A program made the position numbers and the translations under genes. A DNA stretch of 64,000 nucleotides from positions 3,584,001 to 3,648,000 of the forward strand of contig OZ253470.1 in assembly GCA_965261735.1 (NCBI GenBank). The letters run 5' to 3'. This document shows positions 4,231 to 52,109 of this stretch, in pieces. The first letter of the stretch is position 1; each line of letters opens with the position of its first letter. This DNA comes from Alphaproteobacteria bacterium (GTDB lineage Bacteria; Pseudomonadota; Alphaproteobacteria; SHVV01). The notes under the pieces are model-generated. The model did no database searches, had not been told where the DNA came from, and worked only from the letters and a program-made list of their open reading frames with translations.

Positions 4231-5664
4231 GGTCGTGTCCCAGGACGTGGTGTAGGAGTTGTTGGAGCCTCTGGTAGCTGTGGGTAGGCGGCTTGCCGTA
4301 GCGACCGCCGAGAGTCTGGCGTAGGCAAGCCGGCTATCCACAGCGGAGGCCATCGCGGTTCCGGTTTAGGGTTGGGCTAGTGCAAACCAACCTGACCCGA
4401 AGGAGAACCACGATGACCCAGGACATGATGACCCTGCGCGCGCTTTTGGAGAAGAGCTCCGATGCCGATCTGCTTTGCGAGATGATCGGCTTCACGGCCG
4501 AGCGGCTGATGGCACTGGAGGTTGAGGGCCTGACCGGCGCCGGGCACGGCGAGCGCTCGGCGGATCGTATCACCCATCGCAACGGCTACCGCGACCGGTC
4601 CTGGGAGACGCGGGCCGGCACGGTCGAGCTGAAGATCCCGAAGCTGAGGAAGGGAAGCTACTTCCCGGGCTTCCTGGAGCCGCGGCGGATGGCCGAGAAG
4701 GCGCTGGCTGCGGTGATCCAGGAGGCCTACATCCAGGGGGTGTCGACCCGCTCGGTTGACGATCTGGTTCAGGCGATGGGGATGTCGGGCGCCTCCAAGA
4801 GCCAGGTCTCCAGGCTGTGCGGCGAGATCGACGATAAGGTCAACGGCTTCCTCGATCGACCGCTGGAGGGCGACTGGCCCTATCTGTGGCTCGACGCCAC
4901 CTACGTGAAGGTGCGCCAGACCGGACGCATCGTCTCGGTCGCGGTGACCGTGGCTGTGGCCGTCAACGACCAAGGCCGCCGCGAGGTCCTGGGCGTGGCG
5001 ATCGGCGCGTCGGAGGCCGAGACCTTCTGGACCGAGTTCCTGCGCTCGCTGGCCCGGCGCGGGCTGCGCGGCGTGAAGCTGGTGATCTCCGACGCCCACA
5101 AGGGCCTGAAGGCCGCCGCGACCCGGATCCTCGGCGCCACATGGCAGCGCTGCCGCGTGCACTTCGCCCGCAACCTGCTGGCCCATGCCGGCCGCCAGGG
5201 CCGGCGCGTCGTCTCCGCCTTCGCCCAGGAGGACGCCGACAGCGCGAAGGTCCAGTGGCGCCAGGTCGCCGACCAGCTCAGGCCCAAGGTGCCCAAGCTG
5301 GCAGTTCTCATGGACGAAGCCGAGCACGACGTCCTCGCCTACATGAGCTTCCCCAGGGAGCACCGCCAGAAATTGCACTCCACAAACCCGATCGAACGGC
5401 TCCATGCCGAGGTCAAGCGTCGCACCAACGTCGTCGGTATCTTTCCCAACGAAGCCGCCATCACACGGCTCGTCGGCGCCATCCTTCTCGAGCAGAACGA
5501 CGAGTGGGCCGTCTCAAGGAGATACATGACGCTGGAATCCATCGCTCCGCTGAGCGATGGTGTCCCCATCACGCTGCCCACCGTGGCAGCCTGAACGTCC
5601 CGGCCCTACCCGCCGGGAGCCGCGTAGAGCGCAACGCTCTTACACCACTCCGCGGGACACGATC
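4231..5664 (+). mobile_element. IS256-family element, type 1, complete (1434 bp; transposase ORF 4380-5594, likely start 4413)
   Basis: TIRs GGTCGTGTCCCAGGACGTGGTGTAGGAG / GATCGTGTCCCGCGGAGTGGTGTAAGAG; 8-bp TSD GCGATCGC; motifs [20 protein letters not shown]. Confidence 0.97.
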
Positions 5665-16633: not shown

Positions 16634-17042
16634 TGGGAACGGCGGTGCGAAATTAGTCCACGGTAGCGGCGGGATTGTCTCGCTGCGGGCGAAGCAAAAC
16701 TCTGCCACTTGAGCCCTTCGCGGCGACGGGGAGGGCGGGGGCATGCATACCGTGGAACTTTATCGGAAGGTCCGTCTCTCCTGCCGGGACGGGATGAGCG
16801 AGCGTGCGGCGGCGCGTCATTTCGGGATTTCGCGCGAGAGCGTGAAGAAGATGCTGTGCTTTTCGGTGCCTCCGGGCTATCGGCGGACGGCACCGGTTCG
16901 GCGCCCGAAGCTGGACGGGTTCAGCGAGATCATCGACCAGTGGCTGAAGGAGGATCTGAAGCAGCTGCGCAAGCAGCGCCACACGGCCAAGCGTATCTTC
17001 GACCGGCTTCGCGCCGAGCACGGGTTTTCCGGCGGCTACACG
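16634..17042 (+). mobile_element. istA: IS21 left end plus istA 5' fragment, cut by IS256
   Basis: MHTVELYRKVR...RKQRHTAKRIFDRLRAEHGFSGGYT; repeated AAAA-CT-GCCAC-type end boxes. Left boundary approximate. Confidence 0.85.
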
Positions 17043-19849
17043 GGTCGTGTCCCAGGACGTGGTGTAGGAGTTGTTGGAGCCTCTGGTAGCTGTGGGTAGG
17101 CGGCTTGCCGTAGCGACCGCCGAGAGTCTGGCGTAGGCAAGCCGGCTATCCACAGCGGAGGCCATCGCGGTTCCGGTTTAGGGTTGGGCTAGTGCAAACC
17201 AACCTGACCCGAAGGAGAACCACGATGACCCAGGACATGATGACCCTGCGCGCGCTTTTGGAGAAGAGCTCCGATGCCGATCTGCTTTGCGAGATGATCG
17301 GCTTCACGGCCGAGCGGCTGATGGCACTGGAGGTTGAGGGCCTGACCGGCGCCGGGCACGGCGAGCGCTCGGCGGATCGTATCACCCATCGCAACGGCTA
17401 CCGCGACCGGTCCTGGGAGACGCGGGCCGGCACGGTCGAGCTGAAGATCCCGAAGCTGAGGAAGGGAAGCTACTTCCCGGGCTTCCTGGAGCCGCGGCGG
17501 ATGGCCGAGAAGGCGCTGGCTGCGGTGATCCAGGAGGCCTACATCCAGGGGGTGTCGACCCGCTCGGTCGACGATCTGGTTCAGGCGATGGGGATGTCGG
17601 GCGCCTCCAAGAGCCAGGTCTCCAGGCTGTGCGGCGAGATCGACGATAAGGTCACCGGCTTCCTCGATCGACCGCTGGAGGGCGACTGGCCCTATCTGTG
17701 GCTCGACGCCACCTACGTGAAGGTGCGCCAGACCGGACGCATCGTCTCGGTCGCGGTGACCGTGGCTGTGGCCGTCAACGACCAAGGCCGCCGCGAGGTC
17801 CTGGGCGTGGCGATCGGCGCGTCGGAGGCCGAGACCTTCTGGACCGAGTTCCTGCGCTCGCTGGCCCGGCGCGGGCTGCGCGGCGTGAAGCTGGTGATCT
17901 CCGACGACCACAAGGGCCTGAAGGCCGCCGCGACCCGGATCCTCGGCGCCACATGGCAGCGCTGCCGCGTGCACTTCGCCCGCAACCTGCTGGCCCATGC
18001 CGGCCGCCAGGGCCGGCGCGTCGTCTCCGCCTTCGCCCAGGAGGACGCCGACAGCGCGAAGGTCCAGTGGCGCCAGGTCGCCGACCAGCTCAGGCCCAAG
18101 GTGCCCAAGCTGGCAGTTCTCATGGACGAAGCCGAGCACGACGTCCTCGCCTACATGAGCTTCCCCAGGGAGCACCGCCAGAAATTGCACTCCACAAACC
18201 CGATCGAACGTGTGTGGACGCCCCCGTTGATGCAAGCAGTTTTTGGTCGGCTCGGTGCATGCGGTCAGGTGCTGTCGTGTGTCCGGCCTCTCTATGCGGC
18301 AGATGACACGCCGCGGGCCCGTATGGAGATACGCGGATTGGGTCCAAATCGGTTACGCGAGCTTGAAAGCTCTCCGTTCGGATGCTGGTTTTCCCAACCC
18401 GGTCTCGTTGACCTTTGCCCTTACCTGTCCTCCGTCCTGCCCACATCCCCGACGGCTTCCCGCACTTCGCCGTTCTCTCAGGCGGTGGCGGGAGCCCGGT
18501 AGCTCTTCTTCTTCGTCAGTAGCACCCAGACGATGCGCGCCATCCTGTTGGCCAGCGCCACCGCGACGAGCATCCTCGGCTTGCGCGCCAGCATCCCGGC
18601 CAGCCAGGGGTCCGTCGTCACGCCGCGCCGAACCGCCCAGCGGACCACAGTCATCGCGCCTGTGATCAGCAGCCGTCTCAGATCGCGCTGGCCCATCTTC
18701 GATATCTTGCCCAGCTTCGGCTTGCCGCCGGTCGTGTGCTGGCGCGGCACGAGGCCGAGCCAAGCGGAGAAGTCGCGGCCGCGCCGGAAACTCTCCATCG
18801 GCGGTGCGAAGGCCTGGATTGCCATCGCGCTGATCGGCCCGATCCCCGGCACGCTCATCAGGCGCCTCGCCTCCTCATCCTGCCGTGCTCTCACGTGGAC
18901 CTCCCTCTCCAGGCCCGCAATCTTCGCATCGAGGCCGGCGATCTGCTCAAGCAGAAGGCCGGCCAGCTCGCGGACCGCTTCCGGCAACCTCGAAGCCGGT
19001 CCCTCAAGCGCCGAGGCCAGCCGGCCGACATGAGCCGGCCCTGTGGGGCAATGACACCGAACTCCGCCAGATGGCCGCGCAGCGCATTAATCGTCTGGGT
19101 GCGCTGGCGCACCAGAAGATCGCGCGTCCGGAACAGCATGCCCCGAGCCTGCTGTTCCTCCGTCTTCACAGCCACAAAGCGCATGGTCGGCCGCGACGAC
19201 GCCTCGCAGATCGCCTCCGCATCCGACGCGTCGTTCTTTTGCCGCTTGACGTACGCTTTGACGTAGATCGGTGGGACCAGTCGCACCGCATGGCCGAGAC
19301 TGCCGATCTCCCGGCCCCAATGGTGCGCGCCGCCGCACGCCTCCATCGCCACCGTGCAGCGTGGCTGCGCAGCCACAAAGTCCAACAGCTTCGCCCGGCT
19401 CAGCTTCTTGCGGAACGCAACCGACCCATCCGCCCGCGCACCGTGCAGCTGAAAGCTGTTCTTCGCCAGATCGATCCCGATCATGTGAACCTGTTCCATG
19501 GACGCCCCCATCCTCGCTTGGCGTTAACAACACCGCCAACCTGGCACATCGCGATGCCGTCGGGAGGGGCGTCCACCCCATCGGCTCCATGCCGAGGTCA
19601 AGCGTCGCACCAACGTCGTCGGTATCTTTCCCAACGAAGCCGCCATCACACGGCTCGTCGGCGCCATCCTTCTCGAGCAGAACGACGAGTGGGCCGTCTC
19701 AAGGAGATACATGACGCTGGAATCCATCGCTCCGCTGAGCGATGGTGTCCCCATCACGCTGCCCACCGTGGCAGCCTGAACGTCCCGGCCCTACCCGCCG
19801 GGAGCCGCGTAGAGCGCAACGCTCTTACACCACTCCGCGGGACACGATC
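17043..19849 (+). mobile_element. IS256 type 1 disrupted by IS1111
   Basis: Both TIRs present; interrupted at TNPIE|RL; flanks GCTACACG / CTGGCTGA do not match. Confidence 0.95.
18211..19583 (-). mobile_element. IS110 family (IS1111 group) copy 1; transposase frameshifted
   Basis: Subterminal IR GTGGACGCCCC, 7 nt from the left end and 3 nt from the right end; CG core; ORF split into 18891-19511 and 18478-18987. Confidence 0.95.
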
Positions 19850-21589: not shown

Positions 21590-21971
21590 GGCCGGGACGT
21601 TCAGGCTGCCACGGTGGGCAGCGTGATGGGGACACCATCGCTCAGCGGAGCGATGGATTCCAGCGTCATGTATCTCCTTGAGACGGCCCACTCGTCGTTC
21701 TGCTCGAGAAGGATGGCGCCGACGAGCCGTGTGATGGCGGCTTCGTTGGGAAAGATACCGACGACGTTGGTGCGACGCTTGACCTCGGCATGGAGCCGTT
21801 CGATCGGGTTTGTGGAGTGCAATTTCTGACGGTGCTCCCTGGGGAAGCTCATGTAGGCGAGGACGTCGTGCTCGGCTTCGTCCATGAGAACTGCCAGCTT
21901 GGGCACCTTGGGCCTGAGCTGGTCGGCGACCTGGCGCCACTGGACCTTCGCGCTGTCGGCGTCCTCCTGGG
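21590..21971 (-). pseudogene. IS256 type 1 3' fragment with an empty IS1111 target site, followed by a 75-bp IS1595 fragment (~21970-22045)
   Basis: Sequence identity to the resident elements. Confidence 0.9.
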
Positions 21972-24763: not shown

Positions 24764-24999
24764 GGGGCGGAGGGGCAACCGACAAACGCGCCGGAATGCG
24801 GCGCGCGCCTGTCCGCGCTGATTCGAGGCAGAGCGGCGGTCACGGCGTGTCGGAAGGATTACCGGGCCGTATCCCTTCTGTCACGCTGTGGAGGCGTCCG
24901 ACCAGCGGGTGAGGGTCCGAGTGTCGAGCCGCACGGTTTCCTGCCACAGCGGCCATTCGCTGTCTCCGCGCATCCGGGCAGCCACGGCTTGGCCGAACG

Positions 25000-26373
25000 T
25001 GTGTGGACGCCCCCGTTGATGCAAGCAGTTTTTGGTCGGCTCGGTGCATGCGGTCAGGTGCTGTCGTGTGTCCGGCCTCTCTATGCGGCAGATGACACGC
25101 CGCGGGCTCGTATGGAGATACGCGGATTGGGTCCAAATCGGTTACGCGAGCTTGAAAGCTCTCCGTTCGGATGCTGGTTTTCCCAACCCGGTCTCGTTGA
25201 CCTTTGCCCTTACCTGTCCTCCGTCCTGCCCACATCCCCGACGGCTTCCCGCACTTCGCCGTTCTCTCAGGCGGTGGCGGGAGCCCGGTAGCTCTTCTTC
25301 TTCGTCAGTAGCGCCCAGACGATGCGCGCCATCCTGTTGGCCAGCGCCACCGCGACGAGCATCCTCGGCTTGCGCGCCAGCATCCCGGCCAGCCAGGGGT
25401 CCGTCGTCACGCCGCGCCGAACCGCCCAGCGGACCACAGTCATCGCGCCTGTGATCAGCAGCCGTCTCAGATCGCGCTGGCCCATCTTCGATATCTTGCC
25501 CAGCTTCGGCTTGCCGCCGGTCGTGTGCTGGCGCGGCACGAGGCCGAGCCAAGCGGAGAAGTCGCGGCCGCGCCGGAAACTCTCCATCGGCGGTGCGAAG
25601 GCCTGGATTGCCATCGCGCTGATCGGCCCGATCCCCGGCACGCTCATCAGGCGCCTCGCCTCCTCATCCTGCCGTGCTCTCACGTGGACCTCCCTCTCCA
25701 GGCCCGCAATCTTCGCATCGAGGCCGGCGATCTGCTCAAGCAGAAGGCCGGCCAGCTCGCGGACCGCTTCCGGCAACATCGAAGCCGGTCCCCCAAGCGC
25801 CGAGGCCAGCCGGCCGACATGAGCCGGCCCCTGCGGGGCAATGACACCGAACTCCGCCAGATGGCCGCGCAGCGCATTAATCGTCTGGGTGCGCTGGCGC
25901 ACCAGAAGATCGCGCGTCCGGAACAGCATGCCCCGAGCCTGCTGTTCCTCCGTCTTCACAGCCACAAAGCGCATGGTCGGCCGCGACGACGTCTCGCAGA
26001 TCGCCTCCGCATCCGACGCGTCGTTCTTTTGCCGCTTGACGTACGCTTTGACGTAGATCGGTGGGACCAGTCGCACCGCATGGCCGAGACTGCCGATCTC
26101 CCGGCCCCAATGGTGCGCGCCGCCGCACGCCTCCATCGCCACCGTGCAGCGTGGCTGCGCAGCCACAAAGTCCAACAGCTTCGCCCGGCTCAGCTTCTTG
26201 CGGAACGCAACCAACCCATCCGCCCGCGCACCGTGCAGCTGAAAGCTGTTCTTCGCCAGATCGATCCCGATCATGTGAACCTGTTCCATGGACGCCCCCT
26301 TCCTCGCTTGGCGTTAACAACACCGCCAACCTGGCACATCGCGATGCCGTCGGGAGGGGCGTCCACCCCATCG
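25000..26373 (-). mobile_element. IS1111-group element copy 2, intact (recombinase 25267-26289)
   Basis: GIDLAK, MEAC, KNDASDAEAI (DEDD RuvC-like domain), GLVP...TTGGK; inserted in CCGAA-CG-GTTAC. Confidence 0.97.
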
Positions 26374-26375
26374 GT

Positions 26376-28286
26376 TACCGGCCGGACGGCGTGACCGCCG
26401 CCGGTCTCGGCCTCGGTGTCGGGGCGGCGCTGATCGCCTACATGGCGAGCGACCGCAAGGACGCCGGCGTCTGGCTGCGCTTCGGCCCTTACGGCGCGGG
26501 GCTGGCGGTGTGTGCGGCCTCGCTCTGGACCGGCATCGTCCGTCCCCTGCAAGGCGCGGGCTCCTTCGGCGCCGCGATGGCCTGGCTCAAGGATCTCGAC
26601 GGCCTGGGGCTGGTGCTGCTCGCCGTGCCGCCGCCGGCCCTCATGCTGCTGACCGTGCTCTGGTTCGAGGTGGCGGTCGGCAGCGTCAAGTACCTCGACA
26701 GCGGGCGCCGGCGGCGGCGGGCCGAGTCCGATCTTCACGGCCACGCGCGGCTGCTCGGCCGCCGCTTCCTGCGCAGGCTCGTGCGGCGCAAGGGGATTCT
26801 GCTCGGCCAGTGGGGCGCGGGCCGCAACGCGAGATTGATCGGCTGGTCCCTCGAAGGCTCCGCCATCACCGTCGCCCCGCCGCGCGCGGGCAAGGGCGCA
26901 ACCATCGCGCTCAACCTTCTCTCGCCGGACGACCGGGGTTTCCAGGGCTCGACCGTCACCATAGACCCGCGCGGCGAGCTTTGGTGCATTGCCGCCCGGC
27001 GCCGCCGCCAGATGGGGCGCAACGTCCTGCTGCTCGACCCCTTCGGCGTGGTGGGCGGCCACAAGGAAGCGTTCCCGAAATGCCATCTGCCGGACGTTAC
27101 GAGTGCGACCTACAACCCGCTGGAGTTCATACGGAAGGATGAGAACCTTGCCGTGCGCGATATCAACGTGCTGCTCGACGCCTTGCTCACCCCGCCGCGC
27201 CCGGACGCGCACCAGAACAGCCGGCACTTCTACGAGTCCGCCCGCGCCATCATCGCCGGCTACATGGCCTGGGTGCGCTTCAAGGCCGAGCCGCCCCAGC
27301 GCAGCCTGGCCACCCTCTACCGGATGCTGTCGATGACGCCGGAGGAATGGGAGGCATTCGCGGGGCGGGTCCTGGACACGGACCGCTTCACCGGCGGGCT
27401 CACCCATATCGCGGTCGAGCGCCAGGCCCAGGTCGGCCGGGAGGAAGGCGGCTCCACCTTCACCACGGTCGCCAACCAGCTCGCCTTCCTCAACTACCCC
27501 GAGCTGTTGGCTCACACCTCGGCCTCCAGCTTCGATCCCTTGGATCTGGCCAAGGGCGATACCGACCTCTTCGTGGTCGCACCGGAAGAGACCATTGAGC
27601 ACGTCAAGGGCTGGCTCCGCCTCTGGGTCGCCATCCCCAACGCCGTCGCCGGCATCCAGCCGCTGGAGCGCGACCTACTCATCGTCATCGACGAGATGCC
27701 CCGCCTCGGCTACCTCAAGCCGGTCATGGACGGCTACACCATGGCCGCCGGCAAGGGCGTGCATTTCTGGTGCTTCGCGCAGTCGATTTCCGCCCTCGAT
27801 TCGAGCTGGGGCAAGGAGCACCGCAAGACGCTGCTGCACCTCGCCGAGGTCGTCCAGGTCCTGGGTTTCCCGCGCACCGACGCCGAGGGTGCCGAGGAGC
27901 TCTCCAAGGCCATCGGCACCGCCACCTTCGAGGGTCGCACCGAGAGCCGCTCGGGCACCATCGCCGAGAGCCGCATCGTCACCGCCAATACCCAGTGGCA
28001 GGCGGGAGACTCCAGATCCCTGGTCCGCGAGCGTCTGGTCACCCCGGACGAGTTGATGACGCTGGGGCCCGACCGCCAATACGTGATCGCGGCCGCCAAG
28101 GACATGCCGCGCGACGCGCTCCATCTCCATCACGCCCACTACTGGCGCCGCCGCGACGCGGAACATCTCGCCGATCCCAACCCGTTCGTGCTGCGCAAGC
28201 AACGCGCGGCAGGGGCTGGGTCTGGTAGTGCGGAGAGGCGGACGGGGCCGGGTTCGATACTGACAGCCGGAAGGAGGGTGACATGA
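26376..28286 (+). pseudogene. traG: Type IV coupling protein TraG/VirD4; 5' end interrupted by IS1111
   Basis: DLHGHAR, Walker A APPRAGKG, IDPRGEL, YNPLEFI, IDEMPRLG, AQSISAL, RLVTPDELM. Confidence 0.88.
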
Positions 28287-32734: not shown

Positions 32735-33000
32735 GATCGTGTCCCGCGGAGTGGTGTAAGAGCGTTGCGCTCTACGCGGCTCCCGGCGGGTAGGGCCGGG
32801 ACGTTCAGGCTGCCACGGTGGGCAGCGTGATGGGGACACCATCGCTCAGCGGAGCGATGGATTCCAGCGTCATGTATCTCCTTGAGACGGCCCACTCGTC
32901 GTTCTGCTCGAGAAGGATGGCGCCGACGAGCCGTGTGATGGCGGCTTCGTTGGGAAAGATACCGACGACGTTGGTGCGACGCTTGACCTCGGCATGGAGC

Positions 33001-34374
33001 CGATGGGGTGGACGCCCCTCCCGACGGCATCGCGATGTGCCAGGTTGGCGGTGTTGTTAACGCCAAGCGAGGAAGGGGGCGTCCATGGAACAGGTTCACA
33101 TGATCGGGATCGATCTGGCGAAGAACAGCTTTCAGCTGCACGGTGCGCGGGCGGATGGGTTGGTTGCGTTCCGCAAGAAGCTGAGCCGGGCGAAGCTGTT
33201 GGACTTTGTGGCTGCGCAGCCACGCTGCACGGTGGCGATGGAGGCGTGCGGCGGCGCGCACCATTGGGGCCGGGAGATCGGCAGTCTCGGCCATGCGGTG
33301 CGACTGGTCCCACCGATCTACGTCAAAGCGTACGTCAAGCGGCAAAAGAACGACGCGTCGGATGCGGAGGCGATCTGCGAGGCGTCGTCGCGGCCGACCA
33401 TGCGCTTTGTGGCTGTGAAGACGGAGGAACAGCAGGCTCGGGGCATGCTGTTCCGGACGCGCGATCTTCTGGTGCGCCAGCGCACCCAGACGATTAATGC
33501 GCTGCGCGGCCATCTGGCGGAGTTCGGTGTCATTGCCCCACAGGGGCCGGCTCATGTCGGCCGGCTGACCTCGGCGCTTGAGGGACCGGCTTCGAGGTTG
33601 CCGGAAGCGGTCCGCGAGCTGGCCGGCCTTCTGCTTGAGCAGATCGCCGGCCTCGATGCGAAGATTGCGGGCCTGGAGAGGGAGGTCCACGTGAGAGCAC
33701 GGCAGGATGAGGAGGCGAGGCGCCTGATGAGCGTGCCGGGGATCGGGCCGATCAGCGCGATGGCAATCCAGGCCTTCGCACCGCCGATGGAGAGTTTCCG
33801 GCGCGGCCGCGACTTCTCCGCTTGGCTCGGCCTCGTGCCGCGCCAGCACACGACCGGCGGCAAGCCGAAGCTGGGCAAGATATCGAAGATGGGCCAGCGC
33901 GATCTGAGACGGCTGCTGATCACAGGCGCGATGACTGTGGTCCGCTGGGCGGTTCGGCGCGGCGTGACGACGGACCCCTGGCTGGCCGGGATGCTGGCGC
34001 GCAAGCCGAGGATGCTCGTCGCGGTGGCGCTGGCCAACAGGATGGCGCGCATCGTCTGGGTGCTACTGACGAAGAAGAAGAGCTACCGGGCTCCCGCCAC
34101 CGCCTGAGAGAACGGCGAAGTGCGGGAAGCCGTCGGGGATGTGGGCAGGACGGAGGACAGGTAAGGGCAAAGGTCAACGAGACCGGGTTGGGAAAACCAG
34201 CATCCGAACGGAGAGCTTTCAAGCTCGCGTAACCGATTTGGACCCAATCCGCGTATCTCCATACGGGCCCGCGGCGTGTCATCTGCCGCATAGAGAGGCC
34301 GGACACACGACAGCACCTGACCGCATGCACCGAGCCGACCAAAAACTGCTTGCATCAACGGGGGCGTCCACACA
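33001..34374 (+). mobile_element. IS1111-group element copy 3, intact (recombinase 33085-34107)
   Basis: CGATGGG-GTGGACGCCCC ... GGGGCGTCCAC-ACA ends. Confidence 0.97.
34108..34374 (+). ncRNA. Predicted bridge/seek RNA of the IS1111 element; exact RNA ends unknown; also on the minus strand at 18211-18477, 25000-25266 and 50575-50841
   Basis: Stem GGGTTGGG/CCCAATCC encloses CCGAACG - hairpin GAGCT-TTCA-AGCTC - GTAACCG; a second loop carries CCATACG and ACACACGA, matching the element-end junction. Confidence 0.85.
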
Positions 34375-35652
34375 CGTTCGATCGGGTTTGTGGAGTGCAA
34401 TTTCTGGCGGTGCTCCCTGGGGAAGCTCATGTAGGCGAGGACGTCGTGCTCGGCTTCGTCCATGAGAACTGCCAGCTTGGGCACCTTGGGCCTGAGCTGG
34501 TCGGCGACCTGGCGCCACTGGACCTTCGCGCTGTCGGCGTCCTCCTGGGCGAAGGCGGAGACGACGCGCCGGCCCTGGCGGCCGGCATGGGCCAGCAGGT
34601 TGCGGGCGAAGTGCACGCGGCAGCGCTGCCATGTGGCGCCGAGGATCCGGGTCGCGGCGGCCTTCAGGCCCTTGTGGTCGTCGGAGATCACCAGCTTCAC
34701 GCCGCGCAGCCCGCGCCGGGCCAGCGAGCGCAGGAACTCGGTCCAGAAGGTCTCGGCCTCCGACGCGCCGATCGCCACGCCCAGGACCTCGCGGCGGCCT
34801 TGGTCGTTGACGGCCACAGCCACGGTCACCGCGACCGAGACGATGCGTCCGGTCTGGCGCACCTTCACGTAGGTGGCGTCGAGCCACAGATAGGGCCAGT
34901 CGCCCTCCAGCGGTCGATCGAGGAAGCCGGTGACCTTATCGTCGATCTCGCCGCACAGCCTGGAGACCTGGCTCTTGGAGGCGCCCGACATCCCCATCGC
35001 CTGAACCAGATCGTCGACCGAGCGGGTCGACACCCCCTGGATGTAGGCCTCCTGGATCACCGCAGCCAGCGCCTTCTCGGCCATCCGCCGCGGCTCCAGG
35101 AAGCCCGGGAAGTAGCTTCCCTTCCTCAGCTTCGGGATCTTCAGCTCGACCGTGCCGGCCCGCGTCTCCCAGGACCGGTCGCGGTAGCCGTTGCGATGGG
35201 TGATACGATCCGCCGAGCGCTCGCCGTGCCCGGCGCCGGTCAGGCCCTCAACCTCCAGTGCCATCAGCCGCTCGGCCGTGAAGCCGATCATCTCGCAAAG
35301 CAGATCGGCATCGGAGCTCTTCTCCAAAAGCGCGCGCAGGGTCATCATGTCCTGGGTCATCGTGGTTCTCCTTCGGGTCAGGTTGGTTTGCACTAGCCCA
35401 ACCCTAAACCGGAACCGCGATGGCCTCCGCTGTGGATAGCCGGCTTGCCTACGCCAGACTCTCGGCGGTCGCTACGGCAAGCCGCCTACCCACAGCTAAC
35501 AGAGGCTCCAACAACTCCTACACCACGTCCTGGGACACGACCTTCCTCCTTTGCTCAGCAGCCACTGCGGTACCACGCTTTGCGATCCGCGCACTCATTT
35601 TTTGTATATTATTTGGAAGCGGAAAAAGGTTTCGTAAAGCAGCGGAACTAGC

Positions 35653-39069: not shown

Positions 39070-40503
39070 GGTCGTGTCCCAGGACGTGGTGTAGGAGTTG
39101 TTGGAGCCTCTGTTAGCTGTGGGTAGGCGGCTTGCCGTAGCGACCGCCGAGAGTCTGGCGTAGGCAAGCCGGCTATCCACAGCGGAGGCCATCGCGGTTC
39201 CGGTTTAGGGTTGGGCTAGTGCAAACCAACCTGACCCGAAGGAGAACCACGATGACCCAGGACATGATGACCCTGCGCGCGCTTTTGGAGAAGAGCTCCG
39301 ATGCCGATCTGCTTTGCGAGATGATCGGCTTCACGGCCGAGCGGCTGATGGCACTGGAGGTTGAGGGCCTGACCGGCGCCGGGCACGGCGAGCGCTCGGC
39401 GGATCGTATCACCCATCGCAACGGCTACCGCGACCGGTCCTGGGAGACGCGGGCCGGCACGGTCGAGCTGAAGATCCCGAAGTTGAGGAAGGGAAGCTAC
39501 TTCCCGGGCTTCCTGGAGCCGCGGCGGATGGCCGAGAAGGCGCTGGCTGCGGTGATCCAGGAGGCCTACATCCAGGGGGTGTCGACCCGCTCGGTCGACG
39601 ATCTGGTTCAGGCGATGGGGATGTCGGGCGCCTCCAAGAGCCAGGTCTCCAGGCTGTGCGGCGAGATCGACGATAAGGTCACCGGCTTCCTCGATCGACC
39701 GCTGGAGGGCGACTGGCCCTATCTGTGGCTCGACGCCACCTACGTGAAGGTGCGCCAGATCGGACGCATCGTCTCGGTCGCGGTGACCGTGGCTGTGGCC
39801 GTCAACGACCAAGGCCGCCGCGAGGTCCTGGGCGTGGCGATCGGCGCGTCGGAGGCCGAGACCTTCTGGACCGAGTTCCTGCGCTCGCTGGCCCGGCGCG
39901 GGCTGCGCGGCGTGAAGCTGGTGATCTCCGACGACCACAAGGGCCTGAAGGCCGCCGCGACCCGGATCCTCGGCGCCACATGGCAGCGCTGCCGCGTGCA
40001 CTTCGCCCGCAACCTGCTGGCCCATGCCGGCCGCCAGGGCCGGCGCGTCGTCTCCGCCTTCGCCCAGGAGGACGCCGACAGCGCGAAGGTCCAGTGGCGC
40101 CAGGTCGCCGACCAGCTCAGGCCCAAGGTGCCCAAGCTGGCAGTTCTCATGGACGAAGCCGAGCACGACGTCCTCGCCTACATGAGCTTCCCCAGGGAGC
40201 ACCGCCAGAAATTGCACTCCACAAACCCGATCGAACGGCTCCATGCCGAGGTCAAGCGTCGCACCAACGTCGTCGGTATCTTTCCCAACGAAGCCGCCAT
40301 CACACGGCTCGTCGGCGCCATCCTTCTCGAGCAGAACGACGAGTGGGCCGTCTCAAGGAGATACATGACGCTGGAATCCATCGCTCCGCTGAGCGATGGT
40401 GTCCCCATCACGCTGCCCACCGTGGCAGCCTGAACGTCCCGGCCCTACCCGCCGGGAGCCGCGTAGAGCGCAACGCTCTTACACCACTCCGCGGGACACG
40501 ATC
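39070..40503 (+). mobile_element. IS256 type 1, complete
   Basis: TIRs; flanks CAGCTTGA / CCTCAATG. Confidence 0.97.
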
Positions 40504-40804
40504 CCTCAATGCCATCGTTATCGATAATTTGGCGGAGCCCCCGCGTCATCTGGTAGTCGGCCGTGCGGCTCTTCTCAACGAAGATTGTGTGCGCCATGTT
40601 GAGACGCCCGGTCCTCGCCTCATGGTCGTCGGACTTTTCATAGACAAAGATGATGAGGTGGTAACCGAGCCCATAAATCTTTTGGCGCGCCGACTTGAAT
40701 GGACAAGAGGACTGAGGTTGCCGGATGCTTGTGACCTTGATATCCAAATCGAGGCTCGGAATGTCGATGCCGCTAGCGGAGTTGCCCTCAGGCATCTCAA
40801 GCTG
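40504..40804 (-). pseudogene. Inverted middle fragment of a type II restriction endonuclease
   Basis: GNSASGID...DIKVTSIRQPQSSCPF (PD-(D/E)xK-like); the reading frame continues at 42239. Confidence 0.82.
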
Positions 40805-42238
40805 GATCGTGTCCCGCGGAGTGGTGTAAGAGCGTTGCGCTCTACGCGGCTCCCGGCGGGTAGGGCCGGGACGTTCAGGCTGCCACGGTGGGCAGCGTGA
40901 TGGGGACACCATCGCTCAGCGGAGCGATGGATTCCAGCGTCATGTATCTCCTTGAGACGGCCCACTCGTCGTTCTGCTCGAGAAGGATGGCGCCGACGAG
41001 CCGTGTGATGGCGGCTTCGTTGGGAAAGATACCGACGACGTTGGTGCGACGCTTGACCTCGGCATGGAGCCGTTCGATCGGGTTTGTGGAGTGCAATTTC
41101 TGGCGGTGCTCCCTGGGGAAGCTCATGTAGGCGAGGACGTCGTGCTCGGCTTCGTCCATGAGAACTGCCAGCTTGGGCACCTTGGGCCTGAGCTGGTCGG
41201 CGACCTGGCGCCACTGGACCTTCGCGCTGTCGGCGTCCTCCTGGGCGAAGGCGGAGACGACGCGCCGGCCCTGGCGGCCGGCATGGGCCAGCAGGTTGCG
41301 GGCGAAGTGCACGCGGCAGCGCTGCCATGTGGCGCCGAGGATCCGGGTCGCGGCGGCCTTCAGGCCCTTGTGGTCGTCGGAGATCACCAGCTTCACGCCG
41401 CGCAGCCCGCGCCGGGCCAGCGAGCGCAGGAACTCGGTCCAGAAGGTCTCGGCCTCCGACGCGCCGATCGCCACGCCCAGGACCTCGCGGCGGCCTTGGT
41501 CGTTGACGGCCACAGCCACGGTCACCGCGACCGAGACGATGCGTCCGGTCTGGCGCACCTTCACGTAGGTGGCGTCGAGCCACAGATAGGGCCAGTCGCC
41601 CTCCAGCGGTCGATCGAGGAAGCCGGTGACCTTATCGTCGATCTCGCCGCACAGCCTGGAGACCTGGCTCTTGGAGGCGCCCGACATCCCCATCGCCTGA
41701 ACCAGATCGTCGACCGAGCGGGTCGACACCCCCTGGATGTAGGCCTCCTGGATCACCGCAGCCAGCGCCTTCTCGGCCATCCGCCGCGGCTCCAGGAAGC
41801 CCGGGAAGTAGCTTCCCTTCCTCAGCTTCGGGATCTTCAGCTCGACCGTGCCGGCCCGCGTCTCCCAGGACCGGTCGCGGTAGCCGTTGCGATGGGTGAT
41901 ACGATCCGCCGAGCGCTCGCCGTGCCCGGCGCCGGTCAGGCCCTCAACCTCCAGTGCCATCAGCCGCTCGGCCGTGAAGCCGATCATCTCGCAAAGCAGA
42001 TCGGCATCGGAGCTCTTCTCCAAAAGCGCGCGCAGGGTCATCATGTCCTGGGTCATCGTGGTTCTCCTTCGGGTCAGGTTGGTTTGCACTAGCCCAACCC
42101 TAAACCGGAACCGCGATGGCCTCCGCTGTGGATAGCCGGCTTGCCTACGCCAGACTCTCGGCGGTCGCTACGGCAAGCCGCCTACCCACAGCTACCAGAG
42201 GCTCCAACAACTCCTACACCACGTCCTGGGACACGACC
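40805..42238 (-). mobile_element. IS256 type 1, complete
   Basis: TIRs; flanks TCAAGCTG / CATTGAGG. Confidence 0.97.
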
Positions 42239-50449: not shown

Positions 50450-52003
50450 GGTCGTGTCCCAGGACGTGGTGTAGGAGTTGTTGGAGCCTCTGGTAGCTGT
50501 GGGTAGGCGGCTTGCCGTAGCGACCGCCGAGAGTCTGGCGTAGGCAAGCCGGCTATCCACAGCGGAGGCCATCGTGTGTGGACGCCCCCGTTGATGCAAG
50601 CAGTTTTTGGTCGGCTCGGTGCATGCGGTCAGGTGCTGTCGTGTGTCCGGCCTCTCTATGCGGCAGATGACACGCCGCGGGCCCGTATGGAGATACGCGG
50701 ATTGGGTCCAAATCGGTTACGCGAGCTTGAAAGCTCTCCGTTCGGATGCTGGTTTTCCCAACCCGGTCTCGTTGACCTTTGCCCTTACCTGTCCTCCGTC
50801 CTGCCCACATCCCCGACGGCTTCCCGCACTTCGCCGTTCTCTCAGGCGGTGGCGGGAGCCCGGTAGCTCTTCTTCTTCGTCAGTAGCGCCCAGACGATGC
50901 GCGCCATCCTGTTGGCCAGCGCCACCGCGACGAGCATCCTCGGCTTGCGCGCCAGCATCCCGGCCAGCCAGGGGTCCGTCGTCACGCCGCGCCGAACCGC
51001 CCAGCGGACCACAGTCATCGCGCCTGTGATCAGCAGCCGTCTCAGATCGCGCTGGCCCATCTTCGATATCTTGCCCAGCTTCGGCTTGCCGCCGGTCGTG
51101 TGCTGGCGCGGCACGAGGCCGAGCCAAGCGGAGAAGTCGCGGCCGCGCCGGAAACTCTCCATCGGCGGTGCGAAGGCCTGGATTGCCATCGCGCTGATCG
51201 GCCCGATCCCCGGCACGCTCATCAGGCGCCTCGCCTCCTCATCCTGCCGTGCTCTCACGTGGACCTCCCTCTCCAGGCCCGCAATCTTCGCATCGAGGCC
51301 GGCGATCTGCTCAAGCAGAAGGCCGGCCAGCTCGCGGACCGCTTCCGGCAACCTCGAAGCCGGTCCCTCAAGCGCCGAGGCCAGCCGGCCGACATGAGCC
51401 GGCCCCTGCGGGGCAATGACACCGAACTCCGCCAGATGGCCGCGCAGCGCATTAATCGTCTGGGTGCGCTGGCGCACCAGAAGATCGCGCGTCCGGAACA
51501 GCATGCCCCGAGCCTGCTGTTCCTCCGTCTTCACAGCCACAAAGCGCATGGTCGGCCGCGACGACGCCTCGCAGATCGCCTCCGCATCCGACGCGTCGTT
51601 CTTTTGCCGCTTGACGTACGCTTTGACGTAGATCGGTGGGACCAGTCGCACCGCATGGCCGAGACTGCCGATCTCCCGGCCCCAATGGTGCGCGCCGCCG
51701 CACGCCTCCATCGCCACCGTGCAGCGTGGCTGCGCAGCCACAAAGTCCAACAGCTTCGCCCGGCTCAGCTTCTTGCGGAACGCAACCAACCCATCCGCCC
51801 GCGCACCGTGCAGCTGAAAGCTGTTCTTCGCCAGATCGATCCCGATCATGTGAACCTGTTCCATGGACGCCCCCTTCCTCGCTTGGCGTTAACAACACCG
51901 CCAACCTGGCACATCGCGATGCCGTCGGGAGGGGCGTCCACCCCATCGGCTCCATGCCGAGGTCAAGCGTCGCACCAACGTCGTCGGTATCTTTCCCAAC
52001 GAG
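50450..52003 (+). mobile_element. Deleted IS256::IS1111 composite (IS256 left 125 bp + IS1111 + ~55 bp of IS256)
   Basis: IS256 left TIR at 50450; sequence jumps from GGCCATCG straight into the IS1111 end. Confidence 0.92.
50575..51948 (-). mobile_element. IS1111-group element copy 4, intact (recombinase 50842-51864)
   Basis: Same ends and 340-aa ORF as the other copies. Confidence 0.96.
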
Positions 52004-52109
52004 GCCCGCCCTGACAAAGCAGCGAGTGTCGCACCCCCGAGACCGAAGGGATCAGCGGATACCGCCGAACCCGGCCGCGAGGTCCTCGCGCGCGATGACG
52101 CCACCCATG

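Follow-up and report, generated by a model that had tools for sequence, protein, structure and literature searches.

Introduction

Within the IS110 family of insertion sequences (IS), the IS1111 group is recognised by a transposase that measures 330-350 aa and carries a GL-P----S(t)G motif, by subterminal repeats of 11-13 bp with 7 (or 6) and 3 bp between them and the element ends, and by a long non-coding region downstream of the transposase gene, as set out by Siddiquee et al. (2024; PMC11187229). For IS621, a recent preprint (Xie et al. 2026; 10.64898/2026.08.31.748434) describes half-match recombination, in which a site agrees with the core and a single arm, as well as donor-arm-only excision. 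Landing in mobile elements is a habit of the group, known targets being the ends of Tn21-type transposons, attC sites of cassettes and REP repeats. To our knowledge, IS4321/IS5075-type elements are found essentially only in their mobile-element target. Here we analyse a 64,000-nucleotide stretch of an alphaproteobacterial genome (contig OZ253470.1 of GCA_965261735.1; G000:C1:3584001-3648000), referred to below as the window, in which an IS1111-type element interrupts the transposase gene of an IS256-family IS at the same nucleotide in three copies. The genome, G000, consists of one contig of 5.03 Mb, and the window is packed with repeated elements. We compared it with the related genomes G001 and G002, and G004 was also scanned for composite junctions. 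The analysis makes it likely that the IS1111-type element has made opportunistic use of an abundant near-match to the target of its guide RNA.

Results

Three IS256 copies are occupied at the same nucleotide

Elements of the IS256 family have terminal inverted repeats and generate 8-bp (8-9) target duplications. The representative in G000 is 1,434 bp long, with ends GGTCGTGTCCC... and ...GGGACACGATC, and the 393-aa product of an intact copy matches Pfam PF00872 (E=4.3e-117). BLAST found 47 full uninterrupted copies and about 25 fragments in the genome; a perfect 8-bp target duplication is kept in 22 of the 47. Residues D161, D227 and E328 of the transposase align with D175, D241 and E348 of ISCth4, as expected of a Mutator-type DDE enzyme. 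The residue aligned with the catalytic E348 of ISCth4 (chain index 351; the +3 offset was confirmed on D175 and D241) is the glutamate of the motif TNPIE.

In the three interrupted copies, designated COMP1, COMP2 and COMP3 (Table 1), the insertion point is the CG at IS256 positions 1167-1168 (...ATCGAA-CG-GCTCC...), and the insert is each time antiparallel to the IS256 transposase gene. Genome-wide, the site is empty at 58 exact 20-mer matches and occupied at three, which makes 61 in all. Comparison of occupied (GGAGC-CG-[IS]-CG-TTCG) and empty (GGAGC-CG-TTCG) sites shows that the CG core is shared and that nothing further is duplicated. COMP1 and COMP2 each retain both junctions. COMP3 keeps the IS256 site at its 51.9-kb junction only, beyond which the IS256 sequence ends about 60 bp on; the opposite end of its insert abuts IS256 position ~125. 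The placement at the same base in three copies is not due to chance, yet on its own it is no proof of independent events. A previous reading of this DNA made from the letters alone (the sequence-only reading) had reported three occupied sites, at 18.2, 34.4 and 51.9 kb, and four empty ones in the window, and had taken the E of TNxxER for the DDE glutamate. We find the same sites and the same residue, with the qualification that COMP3 is only a remnant.

The insertion splits the Arg codon that directly follows the DDE glutamate and takes the place of the final 64 residues of the encoded IS256 enzyme. These include the Lys at E+7, a position at which a basic residue is conserved across the IS256 family. 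Judging from this gene structure, the insert very probably disables the copies that it occupies. With the Arg codon split and the C-terminal 64 residues removed, such copies should depend on transposase supplied in trans.

The sequence-only reading had further suggested that the composites may travel inside the intact IS256 ends. None of the three carries an 8-bp duplication, and no partner flank was found among the 61 left and 61 right IS256 ends of the genome, so that mobility of the composites inside the IS256 ends is not shown. BLAST of the flanks revealed scrambled IS fragments on all sides. The left end of COMP1 cuts an IS21-type istA-like open reading frame (ORF; window 16743-17042), which has a 91-95% paralogue at G000:C1:378882-379298. 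On the far side of COMP1 this gene is not continued, which indicates that one flank has been lost.

Table 1. Window coordinates of the IS256 copies, the IS1111-type inserts and their predicted guide segments. RE, right end of the insert; a dot marks features given without strand.
Feature	Position	Strand	Remarks
Empty IS256 copy, reference	4231-5664	+	8-bp duplication GCGATCGC; site 5397-5398
COMP1, whole IS256	17043-19849	+	Insert 18209-19583
COMP1, IS256 left part (positions 1-1166)	17043-18208	+	Codons up to ...TNPIE; BLAST against 47 full copies
CG core at RE	18209-18210	.	Part of split IS256 Arg codon; occupied/empty site comparison
COMP1, IS1111-group element by sequence, 1,373 bp	18211-19583	-	Includes left-end CG at 19582-19583; 14 full copies compared
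Right subterminal inverted repeat GGGGCGTCCAC (element strand)	18215-18225	.	3 nt from end; read directly
Predicted right-end donor guide, RNA ACACACG	18276-18282	-	Equals RE ...ACACA-CG; covaries with RE and core (ACACACG, AUAGACG, ACAGAUG)
Predicted target guide B, RNA 5'-GC-GUAAC-CG-AU	18348-18358	-	Equals left flank and core; covaries with left flank in five variants
Predicted target guide T, RNA 5'-CAUCCGAACGGA	18373-18384	-	Pairs with top strand C-CG-TTCGG; covaries with right flank in five variants; internal loop of conserved stem
COMP1, DEDD transposase gene of insert	18478-19499	-	Broken by private 1-nt deletion near 19038-19041
Left subterminal inverted repeat GTGGACGCCCC (element strand)	19566-19576	.	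7 nt from end, counting CG; read directly
COMP1, IS256 right part (positions 1169-1434)	19584-19849	+	Codes last 64 aa, including K at E+7
IS256 fragment, positions 994-1375	21590-21971	-	Empty site at about 21797
Fourth window copy of the element, outside IS256	24998-26373	-	In the only 12/12 site (GGTAAC|CG|TTCGG)
COMP2, complete IS256 with insert	32735-35542	-	Insert 33001-34376 (+ strand), transposase intact
Two empty IS256 copies, mutually inverted	39070-42238 (39070-40503, 40805-42238)	.	Sites at about 40236 and 41071
COMP3 remnant	50450-52010	+	IS256 1-125; insert 50573-51948 (- strand), transposase intact; about 60 bp of IS256 from position 1169
COMP3 deletion joint	50567-50574	.	RE-CG joined to ATGGCC of IS256, mimic of element left end CG-ATGGGG

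The insert has the characters of the IS1111 group

The element is present in G000 as 14 full and two partial copies that are 99.3-100% identical; 13 of the full copies measure 1,374 bp and COMP1 measures 1,373 bp. Its 340-aa protein (ORF at window 25270-26289) matches PF01548 (E=8.7e-15) and PF02371 (E=4e-22) and is intact in 13 of the 14 copies, the broken one being that of COMP1. Both its length and the sequence GLVPRQHTTG, which fits the GL-P----S(t)G motif, are those of IS1111 transposases. The same holds for the 11-bp subterminal repeats, with terminal extensions CGATGGG (7 nt with the CG counted, left) and ACA (3 nt), for the non-coding sequence, of which about 270 nt follow the transposase stop codon and 84 nt precede the start, and for the lack of a target duplication beyond the core. 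As in elements with a seekRNA, the top-strand match to the target lies 5' of the bottom-strand match and overlaps it at the insertion point, in the sequences of five variants. Judged by all the sequence characters applied, the insert is a member of the IS1111 group of the IS110 family, and its identification as an RNA-guided element by the sequence-only reading is supported by Pfam, by the ends and by guide covariation. An Rfam scan of 18100-19700 at E<=1 gave no match, indicating that no curated family covers the RNA region of the insert.

Guide segments change in step with the flanks

The guides were fixed by covariation. The non-coding regions of five natural variants were aligned and compared with each variant's own flanks. 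These variants are the window element (A), A' (94%), B and B' (~81%; B about 82% to A) and C (79%); A and B occur in G000, B' in G001 (14 copies listed), A' and C in G002. Alignment of A with B shows a non-coding region that is conserved except for short blocks. Both target guides and the right-end donor segment change together with the variant's own flanks in all five cases (Table 2). A small conserved hairpin separates blocks 1 and 2 within a stem that shows some compensatory change, and the internal loop that contains both guides is bounded by conserved stems. Guide T is located 5' of guide B, which is the order given for IS1111-type seekRNAs in PMC11187229.

We propose that a seekRNA- or bridge-type RNA is made from the region downstream of the DEDD recombinase gene and is used by the element. 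Two guide segments in one internal loop would specify GTAAC|CG|TTCGG, with guide B reading the left arm and core and guide T the core and right arm.

Table 2. Variable blocks of the non-coding region in five variants (DNA letters) and the flanks to which they correspond. Block 2 has the form GC-[5 nt]-core-AU.
Variant	Block 1	Right flank complemented by block 1	Block 2	Left flank	Block 3	Right end and core
A	CATCCGAACGGA	C-CG-TTCGG	GC-GTAAC-CG-AT	GTAAC	ACACACG	ACACA-CG
A'	contains TTGACCG	CG-GTCAA	GC-GCAAA-CG-AA	GCAAA	ATAGACG	ATAGA-CG
B	contains GTGGTACA	TG-TACCAC	GC-AAAAA-TG-AT	AAAAA	ACAGATG	ACAGA-TG
B'	contains GGGTCAA	T-TG-ACCC	GC-AAAAT-TG-AT	AAAAT	ACAGATG	ACAGA-TG
C	TGGCCGGACATGG	CG-TTCGGCC, 7 of 8	GC-GGGGA-CG-AT	GGGA	ATAGACG	ATAGA-CG

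The IS256 site is an abundant near-match

The ideal target of A, GTAAC|CG|TTCGG, agrees with the IS256 site GGAGC|CG|TTCGA at 9 of 12 positions. The sequence-only reading had arrived at this figure, which is reproduced with the guides fixed by covariation. Right arm and core provide eight contiguous pairs with guide T, and the left arm matches at 3 of 5 positions; the IS256 site would thus be a near-cognate target. The remaining 11 of the 14 element copies lie outside IS256, at sites that score 8-12/12. All 11 have AAC at -3 to -1, and 10 have T or C at -4, as a G-U pair would allow; only the IS256 site breaks the A at -2. TTCG stands directly after the core in four of the 11 sites and after an extra G in three, and four have no right-arm match. 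The latter (G000:C1:1544441, 1699254, 3689047 and 4466649) carry GTAAC or GCAAC as left arm, perfect or with wobble, and from their flanks they look like left-arm half-match insertions. The right flanks of two of them begin with AT, like the two bases after the core in guide B.

Empty sites number two for the motif G[TC]AACCGTTCG, nine for the relaxed motif G.AACCGTTCG and 32 for AACCGTTCG. Sites with one mismatch to the relaxed motif number 415, and since 58 of these are IS256 sites, IS256 forms the largest single block of near-cognate sites. With about 61 copies of IS256, its site is the most abundant near-match sequence in the genome. We also considered whether the cognate 12-mer derives from the E-R-L codons of another IS256 relative. 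No such gene exists in G000, and a pattern scan of 401 genomes of the class gave two hits against two control hits, so we reject this origin.

The COMP3 deletion joins the right end to a left-end mimic

At the rearranged end of COMP3 the joint reads ...GGAACCG-CG-ATGGCC, compared with ...AAC-CG-ATGGGG at the element's own left junction. Of the 137 CG dinucleotides in the 1,166 bp adjoining the RE, only two are followed by ATGG, and the COMP3 endpoint is one of these. The element's recombinase would have joined the right end to the left-end mimic CG-ATGG inside IS256, and this recombination would delete exactly the 1,039 bp that are missing. The COMP3 deletion is thus most likely the product of donor-arm-only (half-match) recombination, as far as one joint can tell.

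The element is not specialised on IS256

A dedicated habit like that of IS4321/IS5075 would place most copies in the mobile-element target, with guides fully complementary to it and with nesting recurring wherever both elements occur. Here, IS256 holds 3 of 14 full copies, the guides agree with its site at 9/12 and mismatch it at -2, a position otherwise invariant, and nesting does not recur in G002. This genome contains both elements at 99-100% identity, and its IS256 sites are all empty (16 empty, 0 occupied). G001 has 32 empty IS256 sites, and only the B' family of the insert is present there. Composite junctions were absent from G001, G002 and G004, from the species-genome collection (two scans) and from metagenome contigs (one scan). 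Among plasmid records, only 73-79% relatives of either element were found, and the composite is not covered to 80% by any of them. These results speak against specialisation on IS256.

With 17043-19849 as the query, relatives of both elements (95-100%, high contig depth) were found in the public runs X1, X15, X16 and X17, which come from four studies, one run being a sponge metagenome; both insertion sequences are thus widespread beyond G000. The empty IS256 joint (18208 to 19582) is seen in contigs of X15, X16 and X17. No bridge from IS256 into the insert occurs among the contigs listed, but contigs drop rare forms, so that this is not evidence of absence.

Haplotypes of the element copies

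Alignment of the 14 full copies gives 18 variable columns, with four-gamete conflicts, for example between 540 and 1061 and between 161 and 1148. Such conflicts point to recombination or homoplasy, under which a tree would mislead. For this reason no trees were built from the single-nucleotide polymorphisms (SNPs), although the sequence-only reading had proposed to compare those of host and passenger. The two SNPs that it had noted in the first and third window copies only are 540A and 1061T, carried by COMP1 and COMP2 and absent from the copy at 25 kb and from COMP3. All four window copies carry 1078A/1148G, the haplotype of 6 of the 14 copies. As the fourth window copy belongs to this group and occupies a 12/12 site outside IS256, the element has moved locally at least once.

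Sibling elements and neighbouring features

Variant A' is nested in the non-coding region of a B'-type IS1111 element (L022:1380-3120; G002:C4, around 1629211-1630583). Its insertion site is AAGGGCAAA|CG|GTCAATCGAG, which both A' guides match at 12/12; guides aimed at other insertion sequences thus arise in this lineage. Empty occurrences of the A' target 21-mer number 15 in G001, 6-7 in G000 and one in G002. At the homologous place, the non-coding regions of A and A' themselves read GGGCAAA--GGTCAACGAG, without the CG core, which would make A and A' self-immune. Family B (G000:C1:439467-440841 and four more copies), about 82% identical to A and with core TG, has four of its five full copies in a short repeat of roughly 110 bp; one empty copy of this repeat lies at G000:C1:2249732-2249825.

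The inverted IS256 copies at 39070-40503 and 40805-42238 have swapped 8-bp flanks, with CAGCTTGA and CCTCAATG occurring once on each copy. This swap indicates that the 300 bp between them were inverted by exchange between the copies. Two IS256 fragments are broken near the insertion CG, one at G000:C1:1186282 and one at G000:C1:3648258-3649503, just past the window end. They were considered as insertion scars (1186282 and 3648329/3648328). The breaks are not at the CG but 4 and 8 nt beyond it; one fragment is truncated, and the other lacks positions 1176-1363 through an internal deletion. The breaks are no clear scars, and their proximity to the site may be coincidental. The element copy at 25 kb lies immediately upstream of a 741-aa ORF (window 26061-28286), or in its beginning. 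The ORF product, by eye, presumably resembles a conjugative coupling protein. The stretch around this ORF may belong to an integrated conjugative element.

Discussion

The reading that we consider probable is that an IS1111-group element made opportunistic use of an abundant near-match site, in a manner explained by its guide logic and, in COMP3, by the deletion model given above. The element would have done so in an IS-dense stretch of 34 kb in which the same sub-lineage was active.

Several observations weigh against this reading. There are 32 AACCGTTCG sites, including two perfect 11-mers, that are still empty. If three hits had fallen independently and at random among the near-matches, all three would lie in IS256 with a chance of (58/415)^3, about 0.3%. 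No consistent left-end donor guide could be assigned across the variants, as CUCCAUACG/ACA does not track the core. The COMP3 endpoint passed over a better mimic (CGATGGG) closer to the right end. Finally, all three occupied sites fall inside 33.7 kb, a tightness reached by only 34 of the 35,990 triples that can be drawn from 61 sites; such clustering needs a local bias or the copying of one composite. The allele pair 540A+1061T is unique to COMP1 and COMP2, and this also fits common descent.

These last two points lead to the alternative of a single insertion, in which one off-target hit made one composite, and the composite or its insert then spread to two further places by IS256-type transposition (with transposase in trans from 47 intact copies), by gene conversion or by double-strand-break repair between neighbouring IS256 copies. 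This account differs from opportunistic use in the number of events only and is compatible with its mechanism. Beyond the clustering and the shared alleles, it is favoured by the homology between COMP1 and COMP2, which stops exactly at the IS256 ends (17043-19849), and by their IS256 backbones, which differ at 1 of 1,434 positions. However, the differing column (44) is a polymorphism of the family, with 22 G to 25 T. Two further points in favour of a single insertion are the break of the IS256 site with an otherwise invariant target position and the lack of any occupied site among the 16 of G002. Ectopic exchange between IS256 copies is common, as seen in the inverted pair at 39-42 kb and in the loss of the duplication from all but 22 of 47 full copies. 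Against a single insertion, the similarity among the three inserts does not exceed that of triples drawn at random from the 14 copies (summed distance 12, 40th percentile). The COMP3 insert is identical to a copy outside IS256 (genome position 1547537) and differs from that of COMP2 at three sites and from that of COMP1 at five. The differences are alleles also present in other copies and look like standing variation rather than new mutations. Moreover, no composite is flanked by a duplication, and transposition of a composite is not shown. We put a single insertion a little below an even chance, and the balance tips slightly towards at least two events.

A more far-reaching version of opportunistic use would have the element repeatedly and locally exploit the catalytic codons of IS256 as a safe harbour through one-arm pairing, erode IS256 by guide-directed pseudo-excision and, as in A', belong to a lineage whose guides drift onto other insertion sequences. 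We regard this combination as unlikely. Should it be true, it would amount to natural warfare of IS against IS with built-in self-immunity.

The sequence-only reading had described the insert as a hyperparasite. The disabling of occupied IS256 copies by loss of the last 64 residues remains very probable, and specialisation on IS256 is not borne out (3 of 14 copies, 3 of 61 sites). A dedicated hyperparasite, evolved to seek the IS256 catalytic codons, would strike repeatedly, curb the spread of IS256 and ride inside its ends. It would account for nucleotide and orientation being identical three times, in the most constrained codons of IS256; the insert haplotypes allow more than one event, and the 94% sibling in G002 has 12/12 guides for a site inside another IS1111-type element. 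Nevertheless, a different 12-mer is the better fit to the guides, and the copy at 25 kb occupies this 12/12 site. Eleven of 14 copies are elsewhere, 58 of 61 sites are empty, no composite was found in G001, G002, G004 or the species genomes, metagenomes and plasmids scanned, the composites have no duplications, and the search for an E-R-L-codon origin of the 12-mer did not rise above its controls (two hits each in 401 genomes). Taken together, these observations make a dedicated hyperparasite very improbable. That the composites are mis-joined repeats of the assembly is hardly credible, for although the region is very repeat-rich, the genome is one contig, COMP1 and COMP2 have both junctions, and the composites differ in flanks and private SNPs, with one private frameshift and one private deletion.

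Under the preferred reading of opportunistic use, the locus is a natural record of site choice by an RNA-guided recombinase, in which five siblings re-aim their guides, sites score between 8/12 and 12/12 and one arm dominates. For the engineering of bridge and seek RNAs, it offers evidence from the field that nature makes use of half-matches and of near-matches present in many copies. As regards the ecology of transposons, it suggests that an IS of high copy number can turn into the chief off-target sink for an RNA-guided one, even if the effect on IS256 is small here (3 of 61 copies).

Comparison with known systems

The host element belongs with ISCth4 (PDB 6xg8) to the Mutator-type DDE family, as judged from its 1,434 bp, 8-bp duplications and aligned D/D/E. 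Its protein, known here from sequence, is only 26-30% identical to that of ISCth4 as described by Kosek et al. (PMC7780238).

In its position the insert resembles the IS4321/IS5075-like elements, being an IS1111-type element at a fixed place in another transposable element that it should cripple. Unlike them, it has only 3 of 14 copies in IS256, agrees with the target at 9/12 and inserts within a transposase gene, not at an end. Literature searches that were not aimed exactly at this combination turned up no report of an IS110/IS1111 element inside the transposase gene of an IS256. The element is an IS1111-group member with a new sequence and a near-cognate target in IS256, and nesting in mobile elements is already known for its group.

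With IS621, as presented by Durrant et al. (2024) and Xie et al. (2026), the element would have in common separate target and donor guide loops, a shared core dinucleotide, use of sites with core plus one arm, and donor-arm-only excision. In contrast, IS621 is of the IS110 group, with its RNA upstream and a CT core, whereas here the core is CG and the RNA would lie downstream. Half-match use is read here from natural insertion sites and one deletion joint.

The element also resembles ISEc11, ISKpn4, ISPst6 and ISPa11, which have a 3' seekRNA. According to PMC11187229, these have a DEDD transposase of 330-350 aa, subterminal repeats of 11-13 bp, 7- and 3-nt extensions and a long 3' non-coding region, with two short target matches overlapping at the insertion point, the top-strand one 5', and with guide changes that re-direct them naturally. 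The element of the window differs from those described there in its new sequence and its new target GTAAC|CG|TTCGG, in that its RNA is a prediction, and in that many of its sites are one-arm matches.

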